Virus record (IMG/VR): IMGVR_UViG_2778261083_000006
Reading direction: 5' to 3' (one strand)
Source: a virus
Taxonomy: Duplodnaviria; Heunggongvirae; Uroviricota; Caudoviricetes
DNA: 8,576 bases
The notes under the pieces were generated by a model, which was not told the origin of the DNA, did not search any database, and saw only the letters and a list, made by a program, of their open reading frames with translations. Of the stretch, positions 1 through 8,576 are shown piece by piece. Within the stretch, counting starts at the first letter, position 1. Every line of letters begins with the position of its first letter. The position numbers were made by a program, and so were the translations under genes.

Positions 1-981
1 TTATAACGTCACTCCGCCTTTTAGTGGATTCAGAGCGACGGCATTTTGCAGATAGTCAGGCGCAAGGTGCGCATAGGCCATCGTCTGCTGAATGCTCGCA
101 TGTCCCAGAATCTGTTGCAGTGCGATTATATTGCCCCCATTCATCATGAAATGGCTTGCGAATGTATGCCGCAGGATGTGGGTTGCCTGATTGGGTGGTA
201 TATCAGGTTTCACTCTGCGTAAAATCCCGCAAAATTTCTCATAATCAACTTTGAATAATTTGGCGCTGGCCTCCTCTTTAACTTTTTTCTCCAGTTCCTC
301 AGAAATCGGCACGGTTCGCTTTTTACCGTTTTTGGTTTTCAGGAAGGTAACCCTGCAATTTGTAATCTGTGCTGGTTTTAGCGTGGCAACTTCCGTCCAT
401 CTTCCTCCAGTGCTCAGACATAAAAGCGCGACAAGTAAGTCATCACCAGCCAAAACATTTAACAGTTTTTCGATTTCTGCTTTTTCCAGGAACGTCATTT
501 CAGGGTTGGCCTCCGCCAGTGGCGGCAGTCCGTGAATTGGGTGTTGCCCGGAAAATTCATCCAATTGAATTAATTTTGTGAACATGCCGGATAATCGGTA
601 CATGTCACGGTTTATCGTTGCGGCACTGATACCATCACGTAGTCGCATGGAACGATAATCCATCAAAGCCCTTTTGCTCATCCTGCTCACTGGTATATCA
701 CCTATGCCGCTGATGGTTTTGAGTAGATGATTAAACTCTTTTGTTCCATGCTCGTGGTTTTGCCCGTGATATTTCCACCAGATGTCCAGCAACTCACTCA
801 AAGTCCGGCGGTCTGCTCGCTGGCCTCCCCATTCTTTCTGACTGGCATTGGCGATTGTGTATCGCTCAAATGCTAGTGCTTCAGCTTTTCTTTCGAATTT
901 CCTGCGGATGCGTTTTCCGTCGCGACCGCGAGGTCTAATGTCCACTTCATAGCGACCATCATCGAGCTTCTTAATTGCCAT
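1..981 (-). CDS. int: Tyrosine site-specific integrase (P2 Int-like)
   Basis: C-terminal catalytic signature ...HILRHTFASHF...LGHASIQQTMAYAHL... (R, H-x-x-R, catalytic Y) typical of phage tyrosine recombinases. Start chosen at ATG 979-981 (MAIKKLDDGRYEV...) because it is preceded by GGAGGG with a 7-nt spacer; the track ORF start at 1011 (MVNTAPEGFL...) has no Shine-Dalgarno. Confidence 0.9.
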   Translation of the reverse strand: MAIKKLDDGRYEVDIRPRGRDGKRIRRKFERKAEALAFERYTIANASQKEWGGQRADRRTLSELLDIWWKYHGQNHEHGTKEFNHLLKTISGIGDIPVSRMSKRALMDYRSMRLRDGISAATINRDMYRLSGMFTKLIQLDEFSGQHPIHGLPPLAEANPEMTFLEKAEIEKLLNVLAGDDLLVALLCLSTGGRWTEVATLKPAQITNCRVTFLKTKNGKKRTVPISEELEKKVKEEASAKLFKVDYEKFCGILRRVKPDIPPNQATHILRHTFASHFMMNGGNIIALQQILGHASIQQTMAYAHLAPDYLQNAVALNPLKGGVTL

Positions 982-1050
982 AAGAAAGCCCTCCGGCGCT
1001 GTATTCACCATCTTGGTAGCAAATGGTGAAAATGTAATCTTTATATAGAG

Positions 1051-1344
1051 TTAGCCAATCCTTTTCGCGGAGTGGTTGGACTCTGTTGACTCTGGCCCAA
1101 TGTGCGCGAGAGCCGGTGCGATTTGTCCTGCGTCCGGCGCGGTTTTATCTGTCATAAGCCATAGAGCATATTTTTGGAATGTGGGATGCATAGTGATTTT
1201 TAGCAAAGCTGTGCCACCGGGTTCAAAGTTTCCTCCTTCATATTTTTTAAGTGTGCTTAGCGGTAACTCTATGATTTCACAGAATTTTGATTGGCTTAGC
1301 CCTTCAGCCTCACGCAAGGCCTTAATCTTTTCGCTTAATTTCAT
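1051..1344 (-). CDS. C: Immunity repressor, HTH (P2 C-like)
   Basis: 97 aa; N-terminal HTH-like segment (LSEKIKALREAEGLSQSKFCEII); lies immediately upstream of int on the same strand and divergent from cox, as in P2-type phages. Confidence 0.8.
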   Translation of the reverse strand: MKLSEKIKALREAEGLSQSKFCEIIELPLSTLKKYEGGNFEPGGTALLKITMHPTFQKYALWLMTDKTAPDAGQIAPALAHIGPESTESNHSAKRIG

Positions 1345-3237: not shown

Positions 3238-3509
3238 GTATTCGTATTGAAATTGGCGAACGTTATGTCGTTACCAGTGACAGCTTTCAGTTTATTCTCC
3301 ACGAGAAAAAGAGAGCGGAAAGCGGTAAAAACGCCGGTCAGGAATGGCTGGCAGTGGTTGGTTATTACCCGAAATTAAGCCAGCTCGTTTCCGGCCTGAT
3401 GCATCACGATATTCTGACCGGAAGCGCAAAGTCTTTTGCTGATTTAAACGCGCAGGTTGAGCAACTCAGCAGGCGTTGTTCAGAGGCTTTTGGCTCATAT
3501 GGCCGTTAA
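3234..3509 (+). CDS. Hypothetical early protein (P2 orf83 position), 91 aa
   Basis: ATGA overlap with the upstream stop; its 3' end overlaps the A start by 11 nt. Confidence 0.55.
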   Translation: MSIRIEIGERYVVTSDSFQFILHEKKRAESGKNAGQEWLAVVGYYPKLSQLVSGLMHHDILTGSAKSFADLNAQVEQLSRRCSEAFGSYGR

Positions 3510-5784
3510 AGCCTCCGGGCGTTTTGTCCCTCCGTCAGCATTTGCCGCAGGCACCGGTAAGGCGTTTACCGGTGCTTATGCATGGAACGCGCCACGCGAG
3601 GCCGTCGGGCGGGAAAGACCCCTTACACGTGACGAGATGCGTCAGGTGCAAGGTGTTTTATCCACGATTAACCGCCTGCCTTACTTTTTGCGCTCGCTGT
3701 TTACTTCACGCTATGACTACATCCGGCGCAATAAAAGCCCGGTGCACGGGTTTTATTTCCTCACATCCACTTTTCAGCGTCGTTTATGGCCGCGCATTGA
3801 GCGTGTGAATCAGCGCCATGAAATGAACACCGACGCGTCGTTGCTGTTTCTGGCAGAGCGCGACCAGTATGCGCGCCTGCCGGGGATGAATGACAAGGAG
3901 CTGAAAAAGTTTGCCGCCCGAATCTCATCGCAGCTTTTCATGATGTATGAGGAACTCTGCGATGCCTGGGTGGATGCGCATGGCGAAAAAGAATCGCTGT
4001 TTACGGATGAGGCGCAGGCTCACCTGTATGGTCATGTTGCTGGCGCTGCACGTGCTTTCAATATTTCCCCGCTTTACTGGAGAAAATACCGTAAAGGGCA
4101 GATGACCACGAGGCAGGCATATTCTGCCATTGCCCGCCTGTTTAACGATGAGTGGTGGATTAGTCAGCTTAAAGGCCAGCGTATGCGCTGGCATGAGGCG
4201 TTACTGATTGCTGTCGGGGAGGTCAATAAAGACCGTTCACCTTATGCCAGTAAACATGCCATTCGTGATGTGCGTGCGCGCCGCCAGGCAAATCTGGAAT
4301 TTCTTAAATCGTGTGACCTTGAAAACAGGGAAACCGGCGAGCGCATCGACCTTATCAGTAAGGTGATGGGCAGTATTTCTAATCCTGAAATTCGCCGGAT
4401 GGAGCTGATGAACACCATTGCCGGTATTGAGCGTTACGCCGCCTCAGAGGGTGATGTGGGGATGTTTATCACGCTTACCGCGCCGTCAAAGTATCACCCG
4501 ACACGTCAGGTTGGAAAAGGCGAAAATAAAACCGTCCAGCTTAATCACGGCTGGAATGATGAGGCATTTAATCCAAAGGATGCGCAGCGTTATCTCTGCC
4601 GTATCTGGAGCCTGATGCGCACGGCATTCAAGGATAATGATTTACAGGTCTACGGTTTGCGTGTCGTCGAGCCACACCACGACGGAACGCCGCACTGGCA
4701 TATGATGCTTTTTTGTAATCCACGCCAGCGTAACCAGATTATCGAAATCATGCGTCGCTATGCGCTCAAAGAGGATGGCGACGAAAGAGGAGCCGCGCGA
4801 AACCGTTTTCAGGCAAAACACCTTAACCGGGGCGGTGCTGCGGGATATATCGCGAAATACATTTCAAAAAATATCGACGGCTATGCACTGGATGGTCAGC
4901 TCGATAACGATACCGGCAGACCGCTGAAAGATACTGCGGCGGCTGTTACCGCATGGGCGTCAACGTGGCGCATCCCGCAATTTAAAACGGTTGGCCTGCC
5001 GACAATGGGAGCTTACCGTGAGCTACGTAAATTGCCTCGCGGCGTCAGCATTGCTGATGAATTTGACGAACGCGTGGAGGCTGCACGCGCCGCCGCAGAC
5101 AGTGGCGATTTTGCGTTGTATATCAGCGCGCAGGGCGGGGCAAATGTCCCGCGCGATTGTCAGACTGTCAGGGTCGCCCGTAGCCCGTCGGATGAAGTTA
5201 ACGAGTACGAGGAAGAAGTCGAGAGAGTGGTCGGCATTTACGCGCCGCATCTCGGCGCGCGTCATATTCATATCACCAGAACGACGGACTGGCGCATCGT
5301 GCCGAAAGTTCCGGTCGTTGAGCCTTTGACTTTAAAAAGCGGCATCGCCGCGCCTCGGAGTCCTGTCAATAACTGTGGAAAGCTCACCGGCAGTGATACT
5401 TCGTTACCGGCTCCCACACCTTATGAACATGCCGCAGCCGTGCTTAATCTGGTTGATGACGGTGTTATCGAATGGAATGAGCCAGAGGTCGTGAGGGCGC
5501 TCAGAGGTGCATTAAAACACGAACTGAGAACACCAAATCGTCAGCAGAGAAACGGAAGCCCGTTAAAACCACATGAAATAGCGCCATCGGCCAGACTGAC
5601 CCGGTCGGAACGAACGCAAATTACCCGTATCCGCGTTGACCTTGCTCAGAACGGTATCAGGCCGCAGCGATGGGAGCTTGAGGCGCTGGCGCGTGGCGCG
5701 ACCGTAAATTATGACGGGAAAAAATTCACGTATCCGGTCGCTGATGAGTGGCCGGGATTCTCAACAGTAATGGAGTGGACATAA
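3499..5784 (+). CDS. A: Rolling-circle replication initiator / replication endonuclease (P2 gene A protein), HUH superfamily
   Basis: 761 aa from ATG 3499 (MAVKASGRF...). HUH motif H-W-H at 4693-4701 in VEPHHDGTPHWHMMLF; paired tyrosines in GYIAKYISKN at codons 450 (4846-4848) and 454 (4858-4860), the numbering of the P2 A active-site tyrosines. The track ORF from 3457 starts at an upstream TTG. Confidence 0.95.
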   Translation: MAVKASGRFVPPSAFAAGTGKAFTGAYAWNAPREAVGRERPLTRDEMRQVQGVLSTINRLPYFLRSLFTSRYDYIRRNKSPVHGFYFLTSTFQRRLWPRIERVNQRHEMNTDASLLFLAERDQYARLPGMNDKELKKFAARISSQLFMMYEELCDAWVDAHGEKESLFTDEAQAHLYGHVAGAARAFNISPLYWRKYRKGQMTTRQAYSAIARLFNDEWWISQLKGQRMRWHEALLIAVGEVNKDRSPYASKHAIRDVRARRQANLEFLKSCDLENRETGERIDLISKVMGSISNPEIRRMELMNTIAGIERYAASEGDVGMFITLTAPSKYHPTRQVGKGENKTVQLNHGWNDEAFNPKDAQRYLCRIWSLMRTAFKDNDLQVYGLRVVEPHHDGTPHWHMMLFCNPRQRNQIIEIMRRYALKEDGDERGAARNRFQAKHLNRGGAAGYIAKYISKNIDGYALDGQLDNDTGRPLKDTAAAVTAWASTWRIPQFKTVGLPTMGAYRELRKLPRGVSIADEFDERVEAARAAADSGDFALYISAQGGANVPRDCQTVRVARSPSDEVNEYEEEVERVVGIYAPHLGARHIHITRTTDWRIVPKVPVVEPLTLKSGIAAPRSPVNNCGKLTGSDTSLPAPTPYEHAAAVLNLVDDGVIEWNEPEVVRALRGALKHELRTPNRQQRNGSPLKPHEIAPSARLTRSERTQITRIRVDLAQNGIRPQRWELEALARGATVNYDGKKFTYPVADEWPGFSTVMEWT

Positions 5785-6236
5785 TGGCAAAAATTCACGA
5801 GGTAAAGCTGCACGCAAAATATTTCGACCTTGTGCTGGAAGGAAAGAAACGTGCAGAGTTCCGGAAAAATGACCGTAATTATGAGCGCGGGGACACGTTG
5901 ATTTTGTATGAATGGGTGCAGGGTGTGTATACGGGGCGAAATGTTGAAGCCCGGATAACAGATGTTACTGACCTGTCAGACTGGCTGGAAGATTATGTCT
6001 TGCTAAGTATTGAGCTGCTTAATACAGGCGCATATGAGATTGTGAACTGGAAAGAACTTAGTGAGCGTGGCCTGGTATTCAGAATTAATCATGAAATTAT
6101 GCATCAGCTCGGCCTTGCTGTTATGTATGAACCAGAGACGGGGATGTCTGGCGGGGCAATGGTTGCCACGGATGGAGCATGGAACTATTCAGATGAACAG
6201 ATGGAGCGTGCACAGCAAAACGGGTGGCTTGGATAA
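5784..6236 (+). CDS. ASCH/PUA-like (DUF3850-type) domain protein, 150 aa
   Basis: N-terminus MAKIHEVKLHAKYFDLVLEGKKRAEFRKNDRNYERGDTLILYEW fits the ASCH beta-barrel pattern (G-x-K...R...GD). ATG 5784 overlaps the A stop (TAATG) and follows GGAGTGG. The track start at 5748 is a GTG inside A. Confidence 0.65.
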   Translation: MAKIHEVKLHAKYFDLVLEGKKRAEFRKNDRNYERGDTLILYEWVQGVYTGRNVEARITDVTDLSDWLEDYVLLSIELLNTGAYEIVNWKELSERGLVFRINHEIMHQLGLAVMYEPETGMSGGAMVATDGAWNYSDEQMERAQQNGWLG

Positions 6237-6442
6237 TGCACAGAATACCAGGCGAGATACCGCACCATAAAACTAAAAATATCAAGCTGATGGCTATTGT
6301 TCAGCGTTTACAGCGGATTATGGTCAACGAAAATCTGACGCCCGATGAGCTGGTCGGGTGTGCCGAAATAGTCCGGGATAATTACGGGCGGTTTAACCAT
6401 ATCGGTCAGTCCAGAGTTGCGCCACCACAACGCAGACGATAG
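6236..6442 (+). CDS. Hypothetical small protein, 68 aa
   Basis: ATG 6236 overlaps the upstream stop (TAATG); phage-like GC; no recognisable motif. A shorter start at MAIVQRL... is possible. Confidence 0.35.
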   Translation: MHRIPGEIPHHKTKNIKLMAIVQRLQRIMVNENLTPDELVGCAEIVRDNYGRFNHIGQSRVAPPQRRR

Positions 6443-6448
6443 AGAACG

Positions 6449-6483
6449 CCGCCAGTCGTGAAACTTGTTTTCAGGGCTGGCGG
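6449..6483 (+). other. Imperfect hairpin at the boundary between phage core and low-GC cargo
   Basis: CCGCCAG (6449-6455) pairs with CTGGCGG (6477-6483); inner stem TGAAA (6459-6463) with TTTCA (6469-6473). No T-run follows, so it is not a canonical intrinsic terminator. Confidence 0.3.
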
Positions 6484-6629
6484 GGTTGAATAACGAGTGT
6501 CGCGAGGCGTTAGTTTGAGCTTACAATTAAACCTATTGAAAATTAATGAGAAGTCAATTTTATCTTTTTCTCGTTAAAGATGACCACAACTACTAAAACG
6601 TGAGAATATCAAGACTTGGCAAAATCTAG

Positions 6630-6679
6630 CTTTTCCCAACGGGGTGTTTCGCTATAATACGCGGTCGGTTTTTAGGAGG
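6630..6679 (+). promoter_or_regulatory. Candidate promoter and RBS for the methyltransferase gene
   Basis: Consensus -10 TATAAT at 6653-6658 with a weak -35 (CTTTTC, 6630-6635, 17-bp spacer); AGGAGG at 6674-6679, 5 nt before ATG 6685; 243-bp AT-rich intergenic region. Confidence 0.45.
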
Positions 6680-6684
6680 GGTCA

Positions 6685-7623
6685 ATGCCAACTGTAGTTT
6701 CACTTTTTTCTGGATGTGGTGGTTCTGATGCGGGAGTTTTGAACGCAGGTTTCAATGTGCTTATGGCAAATGATATTTTGCCTTACGCAAGGGACGTTTA
6801 CTTAGAAAACCATCCTGAAACTGACTACATTTTGGGCGATATCTCAGGGCTCCAGTCGTTCCCTTCTGCTGAGTTGCTCATCGGATGCTATCCTTGCCAA
6901 GGATTTAGTCAAGGTGGGGCAAGGAAGGCAGATAGAAAGATTAATACACTATATTTAGAGTTTGCCCGTGCTTTGAGTAAAATTAAGCCAAAAGCATTCA
7001 TTGTAGAGAATGTCTCTGGTATGGTAAGGCGTAACTTTGAGCATTTATTAAAGGATCAATTCAAAGTTTTCGAAGAAGCAGGTTATACAGTAAGCTCGCA
7101 AATTCTGAATGCGTCCCATTATGGGGTATCCCAAGATAGGAAGCGAATCTTTATCGTAGGAATACGAAAGGACTACGGTATTACATACAAATTTCCAAAA
7201 CCAACACATGGTGATGGTTTGACACCATATTCCACAATTCGTGATGCTATTGGGCATATGCCTGTTTGGCCTGTTGGCGAGTTTTATGACGCCGATTTTC
7301 ATTGGTATTATCTATCGCGAAACCGTAGGCAAGATTGGGATCAGATATCTAAAACAATTGTTGCAAATCCTAGACATATGCCTCTACATCCAATAAGTCC
7401 AACATTAGAAAAATTGGGACCTGATAAGTGGCAATTTACTTCGGATGCACCAGCTCGTAGGTTTAGCTATCGAGAGGCTGCTATTTTACAAGGTTTTGGG
7501 GATTTAATTTTCCCAGAAACTGAACGGGCTTCTATTAATATGAAATATACTGTGGTAGGTAATGCAGTACCGCCTCCATTGTTTGAGGCGGTTGCTAGAA
7601 ACCTTCCAGATTTATGGGATTAA
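6685..7623 (+). CDS. DNA (cytosine-5)-methyltransferase
   Basis: Motif I FSGCGG (6703-6720); catalytic P-C in GCYPCQGFSQGG (Pro-Cys at 6892-6897); motif VI FIVENVSGM; motif VIII SQDRKRIFIVG; C-terminal REAAILQGF and VVGNAVPPPLF. 312 aa, about 40% GC. Confidence 0.93.
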   Translation: MPTVVSLFSGCGGSDAGVLNAGFNVLMANDILPYARDVYLENHPETDYILGDISGLQSFPSAELLIGCYPCQGFSQGGARKADRKINTLYLEFARALSKIKPKAFIVENVSGMVRRNFEHLLKDQFKVFEEAGYTVSSQILNASHYGVSQDRKRIFIVGIRKDYGITYKFPKPTHGDGLTPYSTIRDAIGHMPVWPVGEFYDADFHWYYLSRNRRQDWDQISKTIVANPRHMPLHPISPTLEKLGPDKWQFTSDAPARRFSYREAAILQGFGDLIFPETERASINMKYTVVGNAVPPPLFEAVARNLPDLWD

Positions 7624-8525
7624 GCAGCGATCGCGCTGGAAGGATCAAGGATGATATCTAGATAGCTAATATTTTGACTGTGATCAATATTATCAGATGC
7701 TCTGGTTAAATTGATTAATCTTAGGCGATCAACAAAAATAGCATCGCCTAACTTATTTTTATGCGCCCACTCACCATCTATCCATCGTAGATCTTGAGGT
7801 AAGAAATAATAAGTTGCCCATCGGTGAGCTACGGGGAATTTACTGTAGAGCATCGCAGGTGAGGCCTCAAGCTGCTTCGCTTCCCACTCTTCTTGAGAAC
7901 AGCCACACTGAACAAAAGAAATAGGGATGGCATCTCGTTGATCTCCCATTGGATGCCAGGCAATTATGTCAAGGCCTCCGTCACCACTATTTCCTCGACT
8001 GAAATCTCGTTCTTTGAAGTTCGCTGTGCAACGGATATCGGAAGCAATACTCTTAAATTTATTATATAGAGTTCCAGTGTAAGGGGCCGCTTGACCACCA
8101 GAAGCCCAGCATGCTTTTATTATGCTACCGCTAGGCATTAGGCTTTCAAAAATAGGTAAACTAATTAGTTCAAAACTGCGCGTTATCTCTCTTCTGCTCA
8201 TTATGTTGACATATTTTATGTTAGCACAGATTAGTAAAGCTAAATATAGTCTTTCTAAATGTTCCAGTGGCTTTTCTGATATATCACGTAACTCTACAGT
8301 ATCGTTGTCTTCTGATAAAGTAAAAGGGTAACTATCCCCAAATAAATCAATGCGTTGTCGTATGAAGCCTATCGCATAGCTCCACTTTCTGTCAGTATAT
8401 GCTCGACTAACACTTCGTTTTGTTCTCTTGCGTACAGGCGTATCATTTTCATCATCAACATCATAAACGCCCTCTTCTTCTGCTTCATCTGTTTCAGCTA
8501 GGGAAGGTGCGAATAAGCAGGTCAT
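7620..8525 (-). CDS. Unknown protein convergent with the methyltransferase; candidate restriction endonuclease or other defence effector; may be 5'-partial
   Basis: At least 301 codons; its stop overlaps the methyltransferase stop by 4 bp (7620-7623); about 33-38% GC. The frame has no stop between ATG 8523-8525 and the window end at 8576, so the true start may lie outside the window. No motif I can assign confidently; a weak PD-(D/E)xK-like pattern (GLDIIAW ... EAK) is speculative. Confidence 0.7.
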   Translation of the reverse strand: MTCLFAPSLAETDEAEEEGVYDVDDENDTPVRKRTKRSVSRAYTDRKWSYAIGFIRQRIDLFGDSYPFTLSEDNDTVELRDISEKPLEHLERLYLALLICANIKYVNIMSRREITRSFELISLPIFESLMPSGSIIKACWASGGQAAPYTGTLYNKFKSIASDIRCTANFKERDFSRGNSGDGGLDIIAWHPMGDQRDAIPISFVQCGCSQEEWEAKQLEASPAMLYSKFPVAHRWATYYFLPQDLRWIDGEWAHKNKLGDAIFVDRLRLINLTRASDNIDHSQNISYLDIILDPSSAIAA

Positions 8526-8576
8526 TTCTTCCCAAGTTGACTCGCTGATTAAAATTTCGCGGATCTGGGCCGATTT

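Follow-up and report, generated by a model that had tools for sequence, protein, structure and literature searches.

The window analysed here, a stretch of 8,576 nucleotides from a Caudoviricetes virus record (IMGVR_UViG_2778261083_000006), ends with an intact DNA methyltransferase gene that faces the remainder of a nuclease gene, which is interrupted by an insertion sequence at the window edge. The features are listed below, with nuclease residues given in the numbering of the intact 345-aa protein.

6685..7623, plus strand: cognate C5 cytosine DNA methyltransferase (Wphi Mth), whose gene runs towards the nuclease gene and shares 4 nt with its end
7620..8501, minus strand: 3' part of the nuclease gene (882 nt, codons 53-345 plus stop, Wphi orf96 family), encoding the PD-(D/E)xK-like nuclease domain in full, together with the acidic/basic loop and some of the N-terminal domain
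7863..7886, minus strand: WEAKQLEA helix, K261 at least 90% conserved
7896..7916, minus strand: FVQCGCS, second catalytic-motif strand, Q250 aligning with MspJI Q355
7956..7985, minus strand: GDGGLDIIAW, first catalytic-motif strand, with the same D230 in every sequence of alignments A1 and A3
8157..8180, minus strand: RSFELISL helix, E163 at least 90% conserved
8403..8498, minus strand: acidic/basic variable loop, intact residues about 54-85
8498..8501, no strand: CTAG target-site duplication (4 bp, IS5-family insertion), supplying the retained codon L53
8502..8576, minus strand: end of ISKpn26 (IS5 family), the terminal 75 bp at the right end of the element
8502-8517: 16-bp inverted repeat CTTATTCGCACCTTCC within the ISKpn26 end
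8523-8525: fortuitous ATG within the ISKpn26 end; the 17 'open' codons also belong to the element

An ISKpn26 junction in the nuclease gene

The minus-strand reading frame that stops at 7620 (TAA) had been described in an earlier note, made from the sequence alone, as uninterrupted up to the window edge, and this is correct, as ATG 8525 opens a 301-codon frame and the 17 codons at 8526-8576 are open as well. The open edge is not a continuation of the gene, since the frame reads into an insertion sequence. The segment 8502-8576 is ISKpn26, with repeat, CTAG duplication, 1196-bp length and transposase all fitting the IS5 family. The reverse complement of its IRL repeat, which begins GGAAGGTGCGAA, is found at 8502-8517 and both repeats are present in locus L001, CTAG stands on both flanks of the 1196-bp element in strain 98206, and next to the IS tail the RefSeq annotation of NZ_CP173544 reads 'IS5-like element ISKpn26 family transposase'. 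Among complete E. coli genomes, 104 carry the gene, and these diverge from the window exactly at 8501/8502, except where an IS5-family element occupies the same CTAG, and about 3000 E. coli records match only the window tail at 8502-8576, with 1803 places on plasmids. ISKpn26 entered at a CTAG in codon 53 of Wphi orf96, a gene of Wphi/P2-type prophages, and thereby cut off the rest of this gene from 52 codons at its start, from the overlapping upstream gene orf98 and from the upstream region that the two genes share. It shares its 16-bp terminal repeats, 1196-bp length, CTAG duplication and single transposase ORF with other IS5/ISKpn26 insertions, the only notable difference being that the same CTAG is occupied by IS5 itself (91% identical) in another strain. 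This one CTAG of the nuclease gene has been struck at least twice independently by IS5-family elements.

In strain 98206, which provided the only full-length match, the frame continues for 8 codons into the element and then meets an in-frame TGA, and native residues 1-52, family-invariant ones among them, are encoded beyond the 1196-bp IS, at a distance of 1.2 kb. The true N-terminus is located beyond the window, as had been suspected. An in-frame stop just past 8576 had been proposed as a means of settling ATG 8525 as the start; such a stop formally exists in this TGA, but it lends no support to the ATG because both are inside ISKpn26. ATG 8525 was therefore rejected as a start codon, the first eight residues of the window ORF (MTCLFAPS) being encoded by the element. 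The window copy is a truncated gene, a pseudogene, and as it is devoid of the invariant N-terminal residues P13, W20, D22 and E25, its nuclease is most likely inactive. The methyltransferase gene beside it is intact, and a broken nuclease next to an intact methyltransferase would be the pattern expected for a decaying restriction system.

The unusual composition that had drawn attention to this protein was correctly located, with the acidic run AETDEAEEEGVYDVDDENDTP at 8436-8498 (11 D/E in 21 residues) and the basic patch VRKRTKRSVSR at 8403-8435 (6 K/R in 11), but instead of being N-terminal this stretch forms an internal, lineage-specific loop insertion. The loop measures 37-39 aa in the Wphi clade compared to 8 aa in most of 45 aligned homologs, and other lineages carry independent inserts of 23-29 aa at the same site that are mostly acidic-then-basic, too. 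The predicted model is less confident over the loop (block mean pLDDT 72-82). Under the nucleotide-switch model tentatively proposed below, a recurrent element of this kind could act as a DNA-mimicking autoinhibitor of the nuclease.

Fold and motifs of the intact nuclease

Scans of intact orf96 against Pfam, NCBIfam and PADLOC returned no match, confirming that the protein is unrecognised by these collections, and PHROGs only assigned it to a family of unknown function. Profile searches of all PDB sequences with two family alignments gave nothing significant, with MspJI as the best relevant hit remaining below significance (E 0.87), and a Pfam scan of 47 diverse family members revealed no bridging domain. 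The family comprises more than 1500 sequence clusters at 50% identity. The intact protein of 341-345 aa yielded a confident predicted model (pLDDT 91.5), and the structure prediction and fold comparison that the earlier note had asked for bore out its idea of a nuclease-like protein, as the model resembles restriction endonucleases with MspJI as nearest match. It shows the C-terminal domain to adopt a restriction-endonuclease PD-(D/E)xK fold closest to the MspJI/Mrr type, including the alpha-beta-beta-beta-alpha-beta core that characterises the superfamily, with MspJI ranking first and AspBHI also among the fold matches of the nuclease domain. The N-terminal domain is helical with weak winged-helix-like fold matches, unlike the SRA-like domain of MspJI, and in orf96 neither an SRA-like domain nor any other domain known to read 5mC was detected.

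The nuclease domain shares the core fold of the MspJI/Mrr catalytic domain, and the GDGG(I/L/V)D and xxQ strands of its GDGGxD...QCxC motif align residue for residue with D334 and Q355. GDGGLDIIAW lies along GDGGVD334 of MspJI, which places the invariant D230 opposite D334, and Q250 is at least 90% conserved. The position of the canonical lysine, K357 in MspJI, is occupied by glycine in this protein, by alanine in most relatives and by either of the two family-wide. We consider it unlikely that orf96 is a catalytically dead DNA-binding or specificity subunit of PD-(D/E)xK fold, with the activity residing in the ParB/Srx-fold protein encoded next to it (a 'ParB-like nuclease') or in a host factor. 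In our preferred reading of orf96 as a nuclease, K261 on the following helix, which is at least 90% conserved, may be a relocated catalytic lysine replacing the missing one, while E163 is a candidate for the acidic residue of the first helix of the nuclease core. The earlier choice of the aspartate in GLDIIAW and the lysine in WEAK as catalytic candidates was sound in view of this conservation. A further difference to MspJI is found in two cysteines flanking the motif, one of which is invariant while the other is at least 90% conserved.

A conserved module with a ParB-like partner

The methyltransferase matches Pfam DNA_methylase (9.9e-62) and aligns end-to-end with M.HaeIII (1.6e-48). Its best 25 of 63 PADLOC matches are DruM, MTase_II and DrmMII models, and PD-Lambda-5_B was not among the matches listed. 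The partnership of nuclease and adjacent C5-methyltransferase stated in the earlier note extends well beyond this locus, as an orthologous, HaeIII-like C5-methyltransferase gene lies convergent and immediately downstream in 31 of 33 species-level loci from Gamma- and Betaproteobacteria. A Vsr gene adjoins the methyltransferase gene in several loci (L018, L019, L026, L047) and directly follows the nuclease gene in Ramlibacter.

An even more constant neighbour is a ParB/Srx-fold gene directly upstream of the nuclease gene, found in all 33 species-level loci. In Wphi this is orf98, a gene outside the window that encodes 357 aa and overlaps orf96 translationally. The N-terminal domain of orf98 adopts a ParB/Srx fold and retains two nucleotide-binding motifs, ParB box I and the GxxR of box II; this fold, in combination with a helical middle region, resembles Spo0J and KorB. 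ENLQR is the box III catalytic motif of ParB partition CTPases; in orf98 an invariant GYRHITG stands in its place. In Pfam, orf98 scores 15.3 against ParB_N, under the cut-off of 26.3, whereas residues 1-151 match PD-Lambda-5_A models with an E value of 2.5e-24, the rest of orf98 being unmatched. A HEPN effector in orf98 was considered and rejected, as no HEPN family was detected. Intact orf96 is predicted to be the effector of a tightly conserved module of ParB-like protein, nuclease and C5-methyltransferase.

The gene is present at 99% identity or more in 104 of 5426 complete E. coli genomes (about 2%). It is under selection in E. coli, since all copies but a few (at least 3 of the 104) are uninterrupted. 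The setting is the P2 A-Q hotspot, the variable region flanked by replication gene A and portal gene Q in P2/Wphi-type prophages, and the module is also found in chromosomes outside prophages beside TIR-STAND, HicB and UvrD/NERD genes. The gene arrangement appears in a supplementary table of Rousset et al. (2022), whose main text makes no mention of testing it. Our literature search found no description or experimental test of the module; two preprints, an anti-plasmid study of 2026 and a Tn-seq study of Pectobacteriaceae, turned out to deal with other subjects.

Proposed function and alternative readings

Taken together, the segment 7620-8576 probably represents an insertion-disrupted nuclease gene of a three-gene, restriction-modification-like putative defence module in the P2/Wphi hotspot. 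The HaeIII-like methyltransferase would mark host and prophage DNA, while the ParB/Srx-fold protein would bind DNA and probably a nucleotide, and would license or position the nuclease on incoming DNA that is unmethylated, for the nuclease to cut. The linkage to a methyltransferase implies unmodified DNA as the target of orf96, unlike that of MspJI.

Among described systems, PD-lambda-5 (Vassallo et al. 2022, PMC9519451), a validated, prophage-derived system of a ParB/HEPN protein and a methyltransferase, shares the compact prophage module that combines a ParB-N-domain protein, a DNA methyltransferase and an effector nuclease. There the ParB-like domain carries the effector, a HEPN domain, as a fusion, whereas the module described here employs a separate PD-(D/E)xK-fold protein, has no PADLOC match for orf96 and is known from sequence, in contrast to the validated PD-lambda-5. 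Classical Type II restriction-modification systems that include a C5-methyltransferase and Vsr show the same convergent gene pair, HaeIII-like methyltransferase and occasional Vsr, as well as nuclease genes decayed by IS insertion next to a surviving methyltransferase. They differ in that orf96 belongs to no described restriction-enzyme sequence family and in that the overlapping 357-aa ParB/Srx-fold gene preceding the nuclease gene in 33 of 33 loci is absent from standard Type II systems. As this partner is obligatory, orf96 is disfavoured as a stand-alone enzyme.

A coupling of ParB/Srx-superfamily nucleotide-binding modules to DNA nucleases in defence is also realised in GmrSD, BrxU and SspE, where ParB-like DUF262 domains serve as NTPase/sensor modules. 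This resemblance gives rise to a Type IV-like reading, in which orf98 and orf96 would form a modification-dependent system split in the manner of GmrSD/SspE into a ParB-like NTPase and a nuclease, with the methyltransferase serving another use such as shielding the prophage from the restriction systems of other hosts. It gains from the fact that both MspJI, the top structural match of the nuclease domain, and AspBHI are 5mC-dependent. We nonetheless regard it as improbable, as the C5-methyltransferase tied to the pair in 31 of 33 species would render such a system self-destructive unless their specificities were disjoint, and a 5mC-reading domain was not detected in orf96. Furthermore, neither orf96 nor orf98 matched DUF262 or DUF1524 in Pfam at E values up to 1. 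GmrSD, BrxU and SspE also differ in build: they are Type IV or phosphorothioate-sensing enzymes of one or two chains, with a DGQQR motif and a DUF1524 nuclease of HNH type, whereas the nuclease here has a PD-(D/E)xK fold and comes with a cognate C5-methyltransferase.

That the window ORF is a complete gene for a functional, 301-aa stand-alone Type II endonuclease with a charged N-terminus, starting at ATG 8525 or just upstream, we judge very improbable. RefSeq does list a hypothetical protein of strain 98206 with exactly these 301 aa, the in-frame stop is found 8 codons past the window edge, and the nuclease domain is wholly retained. The IS junction contradicts this reading, given that the start codon and first 8 residues are derived from the element, while a longer form, with the conserved N-terminal residues missing here, is encoded by 101 of the 104 copies in E. 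coli and in each of the 33 species loci, and scanning the surroundings of the IS end for promoters revealed no outward promoter-like site able to drive the truncated ORF. Alternatively, the ParB-like gene could act with its neighbour in the partition or maintenance of a prophage that persists as a plasmid, in place of a role in defence. This idea could draw on the ParB/Srx fold of orf98, which in combination with the helical middle region resembles Spo0J and KorB, and on the putative partition systems that Rousset et al. report in a quarter of P2 hotspots. It is nevertheless the least probable of all, and a partition function of orf98 was rejected, as box III is replaced, no ParA/ParM-type ATPase gene adjoins the module in those loci for which genes were listed, the supplementary table of Rousset et al. 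gives the partition cassettes as StbA/Plasmid_stab_B, the genes that constantly accompany orf98 encode a nuclease-fold protein and a C5-methyltransferase, and the module also resides in chromosomes outside prophages.

Returning to the restriction-modification-like module, we tentatively propose, as a possibility still short of a likely one, that in its intact state it constitutes an uncharacterised restriction class, in which a ParB/Srx-fold nucleotide switch reads the methylation of a HaeIII-like site and loads or activates a separate MspJI-like nuclease. Within this proposal, the switch might possibly be a CTP-dependent DNA clamp like ParB and KorB.

The gene had been named as the likeliest place for novelty, which does not apply to the truncated window copy but holds for the intact family and its three-gene context. 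The locus also advises caution, as an edge-open ORF with an odd 'N-terminal' composition proved to be an insertion-sequence junction. The repeated IS5-family insertions provide natural loss-of-function alleles for comparison. If the proposed class exists, it would represent a nucleotide-gated restriction enzyme in which a ParB fold takes the place of a helicase or GTPase motor and the nuclease has a rearranged active site. A ParB-fold switch restricting unmethylated DNA would add a new coupling of site recognition to cleavage in restriction-modification, and would link the validated, mechanistically unexplained PD-lambda-5 to a broader theme of ParB-like proteins acting together with methyltransferases.

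Insertion sequence at the window edge

The window spans the left portion of a Wphi/P2-type prophage, whose genes are arranged as follows.

1-1011, minus strand: integrase, first in order
1051-1344, minus strand: C repressor
Between the C repressor and gene A: cox, B and orf80-83
3457-5784: replication endonuclease A
5748-6236, plus strand: DUF3850/ASCH + DUF7415 protein gene, overlapping the end of replication gene A
6224-6684: 72-codon ORF (RefSeq: hypothetical protein) and downstream non-coding DNA, between the ASCH and methyltransferase genes
6685-7623, plus strand: C5 cytosine methyltransferase
7620-8576, minus strand: the ORF studied here, convergent to the methyltransferase

On the minus strand, ATG 8525 opens a 301-residue frame that ends at TAA 7620 and, as the earlier note described, continues upstream without a stop through the 17 codons at 8526-8576; the acidic run (D/E at 11 of 21 residues) and the basic patch following it (K/R at 6 of 11) are likewise real. 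When window 6400-8576 was compared by megablast with 5426 complete E. coli genomes, the region was present in 104 of them, with nearly all alignments ending at 8501. Some 3000 further records, including many plasmids, match nothing but the last 75 bases, as is typical of a mobile element present in many copies. Only strain 98206 (NZ_CP173544) matched over the whole length; there the neighbour just past the ORF is annotated as an 'IS5-like element ISKpn26 family transposase', and the next gene as a 'ParB N-terminal domain-containing protein'. An IS5-type terminal repeat (...CTTATTCGCACCTTCC) ends at window 8502, followed by CTAG (8498-8501), and the other terminal repeat of the 1196 bp element, GGAAGGTGCGAACAAG, is preceded by the same CTAG. 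As the IS-free SMS-3-5 and phage Wphi read ...GAA GCA GTA CTA GCT GAA ACA... (E-A-V-L-A-E-T) at this site, inside a 1038-nt gene, the junction places the insertion in codon 53.

ATG 8525, formerly taken as a start, thus belongs to the IS, as do the 17 codons upstream of it and the residues MTCLFAPS; the gene's own codons 1-52 are found 1.2 kb away. An in-frame stop beyond 8576, which had been suggested as a check on the start, does exist in strain 98206 as a TGA 8 codons past the edge, but it lies within the IS. We regard this reading of the window end as practically certain; the window copy of the nuclease gene is a pseudogene, and the finding as first written is largely an artefact of the IS junction. 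Over the retained 882 nt the gene matches the intact allele at every base (100%), which suggests a recent insertion with little time elapsed. At window ~8537, within the IS end, one base differs from strain 98206 (A vs G), so the window stems from another, closely related genome with the same insertion.

Fold, candidate active site and charged loop of the intact protein

Pfam, NCBIfam and PADLOC scans of the intact homologue, the Wphi orf96 protein, returned no match and PHROGs gave an unknown-function family, in agreement with the earlier description of the product as unrecognised. A word-indexed search yielded 203 family matches, and an exhaustive profile search 1528 cluster representatives at E<=1e-3 (454 at <=1e-30); nearly all members listed are ~300-370 aa long, and none of 47 diverse members contained a Pfam domain. 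The confident AF2 model built from the alignment (pLDDT 91.5, pTM 0.90) gave one significant Foldseek match, the nuclease MspJI (E 1.1e-4, probability 1.00). The family profile rdtGDgGlDlvaW...faQCaC aligns to SGDGGVD334FIG...LGQ355AK357C of MspJI, an alignment that is not significant alone (E 0.87 vs PDB sequences) and is consistent with the fold match.

Among members of only 23-39% identity, D230 and C251 are invariant, and conservation reaches 90% or more at E163, D226, Q250, K261 and the flanking cysteine, C253 (345-aa numbering). This supports two catalytic candidates named previously, the D of GLDIIAW (D230) and the K of WEAK (K261). The lysine expected two residues past Q250 is G or A across the family, and K261 on the next helix would be the obvious candidate to replace it, in analogy to the Cfr10I/NgoMIV group, whose catalytic residues are relocated. 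The N-terminal invariants P13, W20, D22 and E25 of the WADYxE helix are exactly those removed by the IS. For phage Wphi (AY135739, L002 5221-6330), GenBank lists gp96 with 369 aa and an 80-nt overlap with gp98, and RefSeq with 345 aa. The homologue alignment favours the second ATG (341 aa, MITNLDS...), so that the start in the deposited record probably lies too far upstream.

The charged segment, previously read as an N-terminal feature, is an internal variable loop and not an N-terminal signal. In an alignment of 45 homologues (41-89% identity to the reference), the Wphi clade has 37-39 residues between the conserved QPE and (D/E)xxW positions, against 8 in most of the other members. Independent inserts of 23-29 residues, mostly acidic then basic, occur in this loop in a few unrelated lineages (family alignment A1, columns 55-88, intact residues ~54-88; e.g. 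P0051, P0054, P0081). AF2 confidence is lowest here, with block means of 72-82 vs >90 elsewhere. That the loop acts as an autoinhibitory DNA mimic is only a guess.

A three-gene module in the A-Q hotspot

In Wphi and E. coli SMS-3-5 a 357-aa gene (Wphi orf98) of ParB/Srx fold lies upstream of the nuclease gene, its stop overlapping the nuclease start, and a convergent methyltransferase gene lies downstream. We profile-scanned all ORFs of 33 species-level loci from the genome collection and found this synteny to be strict: an orf98-like gene lies directly upstream in 33/33, and an adjacent, convergent orthologue of the window's methyltransferase is present in 31 (phmmer E between 1e-57 and 1e-190; contig ends cut the weakest ones). 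In another locus a more distant C5-methyltransferase and Vsr lie 3 kb away. Loci L018, L019, L026 and L047 have Vsr next to the methyltransferase, and in Ramlibacter it comes immediately after the nuclease gene. This Ramlibacter locus appears to be a composite island, suggesting that the ParB-nuclease pair may have methyltransferases in common with other systems or exchange them. Between its Vsr and more distant C5-methyltransferase genes lies a 1044-aa protein without recorded Pfam match (L004 8373-11507). These loci belong to Gamma- and Betaproteobacteria; their settings include both P2-like prophages and chromosomal islands adjoining TIR-STAND, HicB and NERD/UvrD genes.

An end-to-end alignment of the window's methyltransferase with M.HaeIII (1.6e-48) makes a GGCC-like site plausible. 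The methyltransferase also scores 1e-110 against the PADLOC 'DruM' (Druantia) model and is labelled 'BspRI methylase' in one phage record, so automated defence annotation could mislabel the locus. The ~240 bp of non-coding DNA between the 72-codon ORF and the methyltransferase gene is likely its promoter or regulatory region.

Gene A has a G+C of 0.50-0.57, which drops to 0.38-0.43 across 6500-8500. This stretch is the A-Q region, variable among P2-like phages and recognised as an anti-phage gene hotspot (PMC9122126, PMC9519451). The hotspot table of Rousset et al. 2022 lists the arrangement 'DNA_methylase + hypothetical + hypothetical' (WP_001143634, WP_000570053, WP_000368931) and a sister arrangement 'DNA_methylase + hypothetical + ParBc', and shows the DUF3850/ASCH gene in the same arrangement as the module; the systems tested or validated according to the text are others (PMC9122126). 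Our literature search found no published characterisation of the ParB-nuclease-methyltransferase module. A Tn-seq preprint on Dickeya reported a prophage gene with an ASCH domain to be essential.

Interrupted copies and proposed function

The gene is present at >=99% identity in 104/5426 complete E. coli genomes, and at least three copies are interrupted.

Strain 98206 (allele of this window): ISKpn26
FXCREC123: IS5 of 1195 bp, 91.2% identical to ISKpn26, same CTAG and orientation
JXZ9A32M: rearranged IS5 allele, 3' junction in common
Occupied CTAG in the nuclease gene: window 8498-8501; L001 8099-9302; L009 5603-6797; L010

ISKpn26 and IS5 struck this one CTAG independently. All three strains keep an intact methyltransferase gene, the pattern expected during loss of a restriction system. 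In a Dechloromonas MAG (L048 2694-3485) a frameshift or stop divides the orf96-like gene into two ORFs, apparently another decayed nuclease copy, and the adjacent ParB-like and methyltransferase genes look intact.

In the function we propose, the methyltransferase would protect self DNA, and the ParB-like protein would bind DNA and nucleotide and license the nuclease on unmethylated DNA. The window copy would be inactive, as its conserved N-terminal helix and operon context are missing. We consider a restriction-modification-like function of the module probable and the specific nucleotide switch rather doubtful. The family behind the finding is widespread and uncharacterised, and supplies the nuclease of a ParB-linked, restriction-modification-like module.
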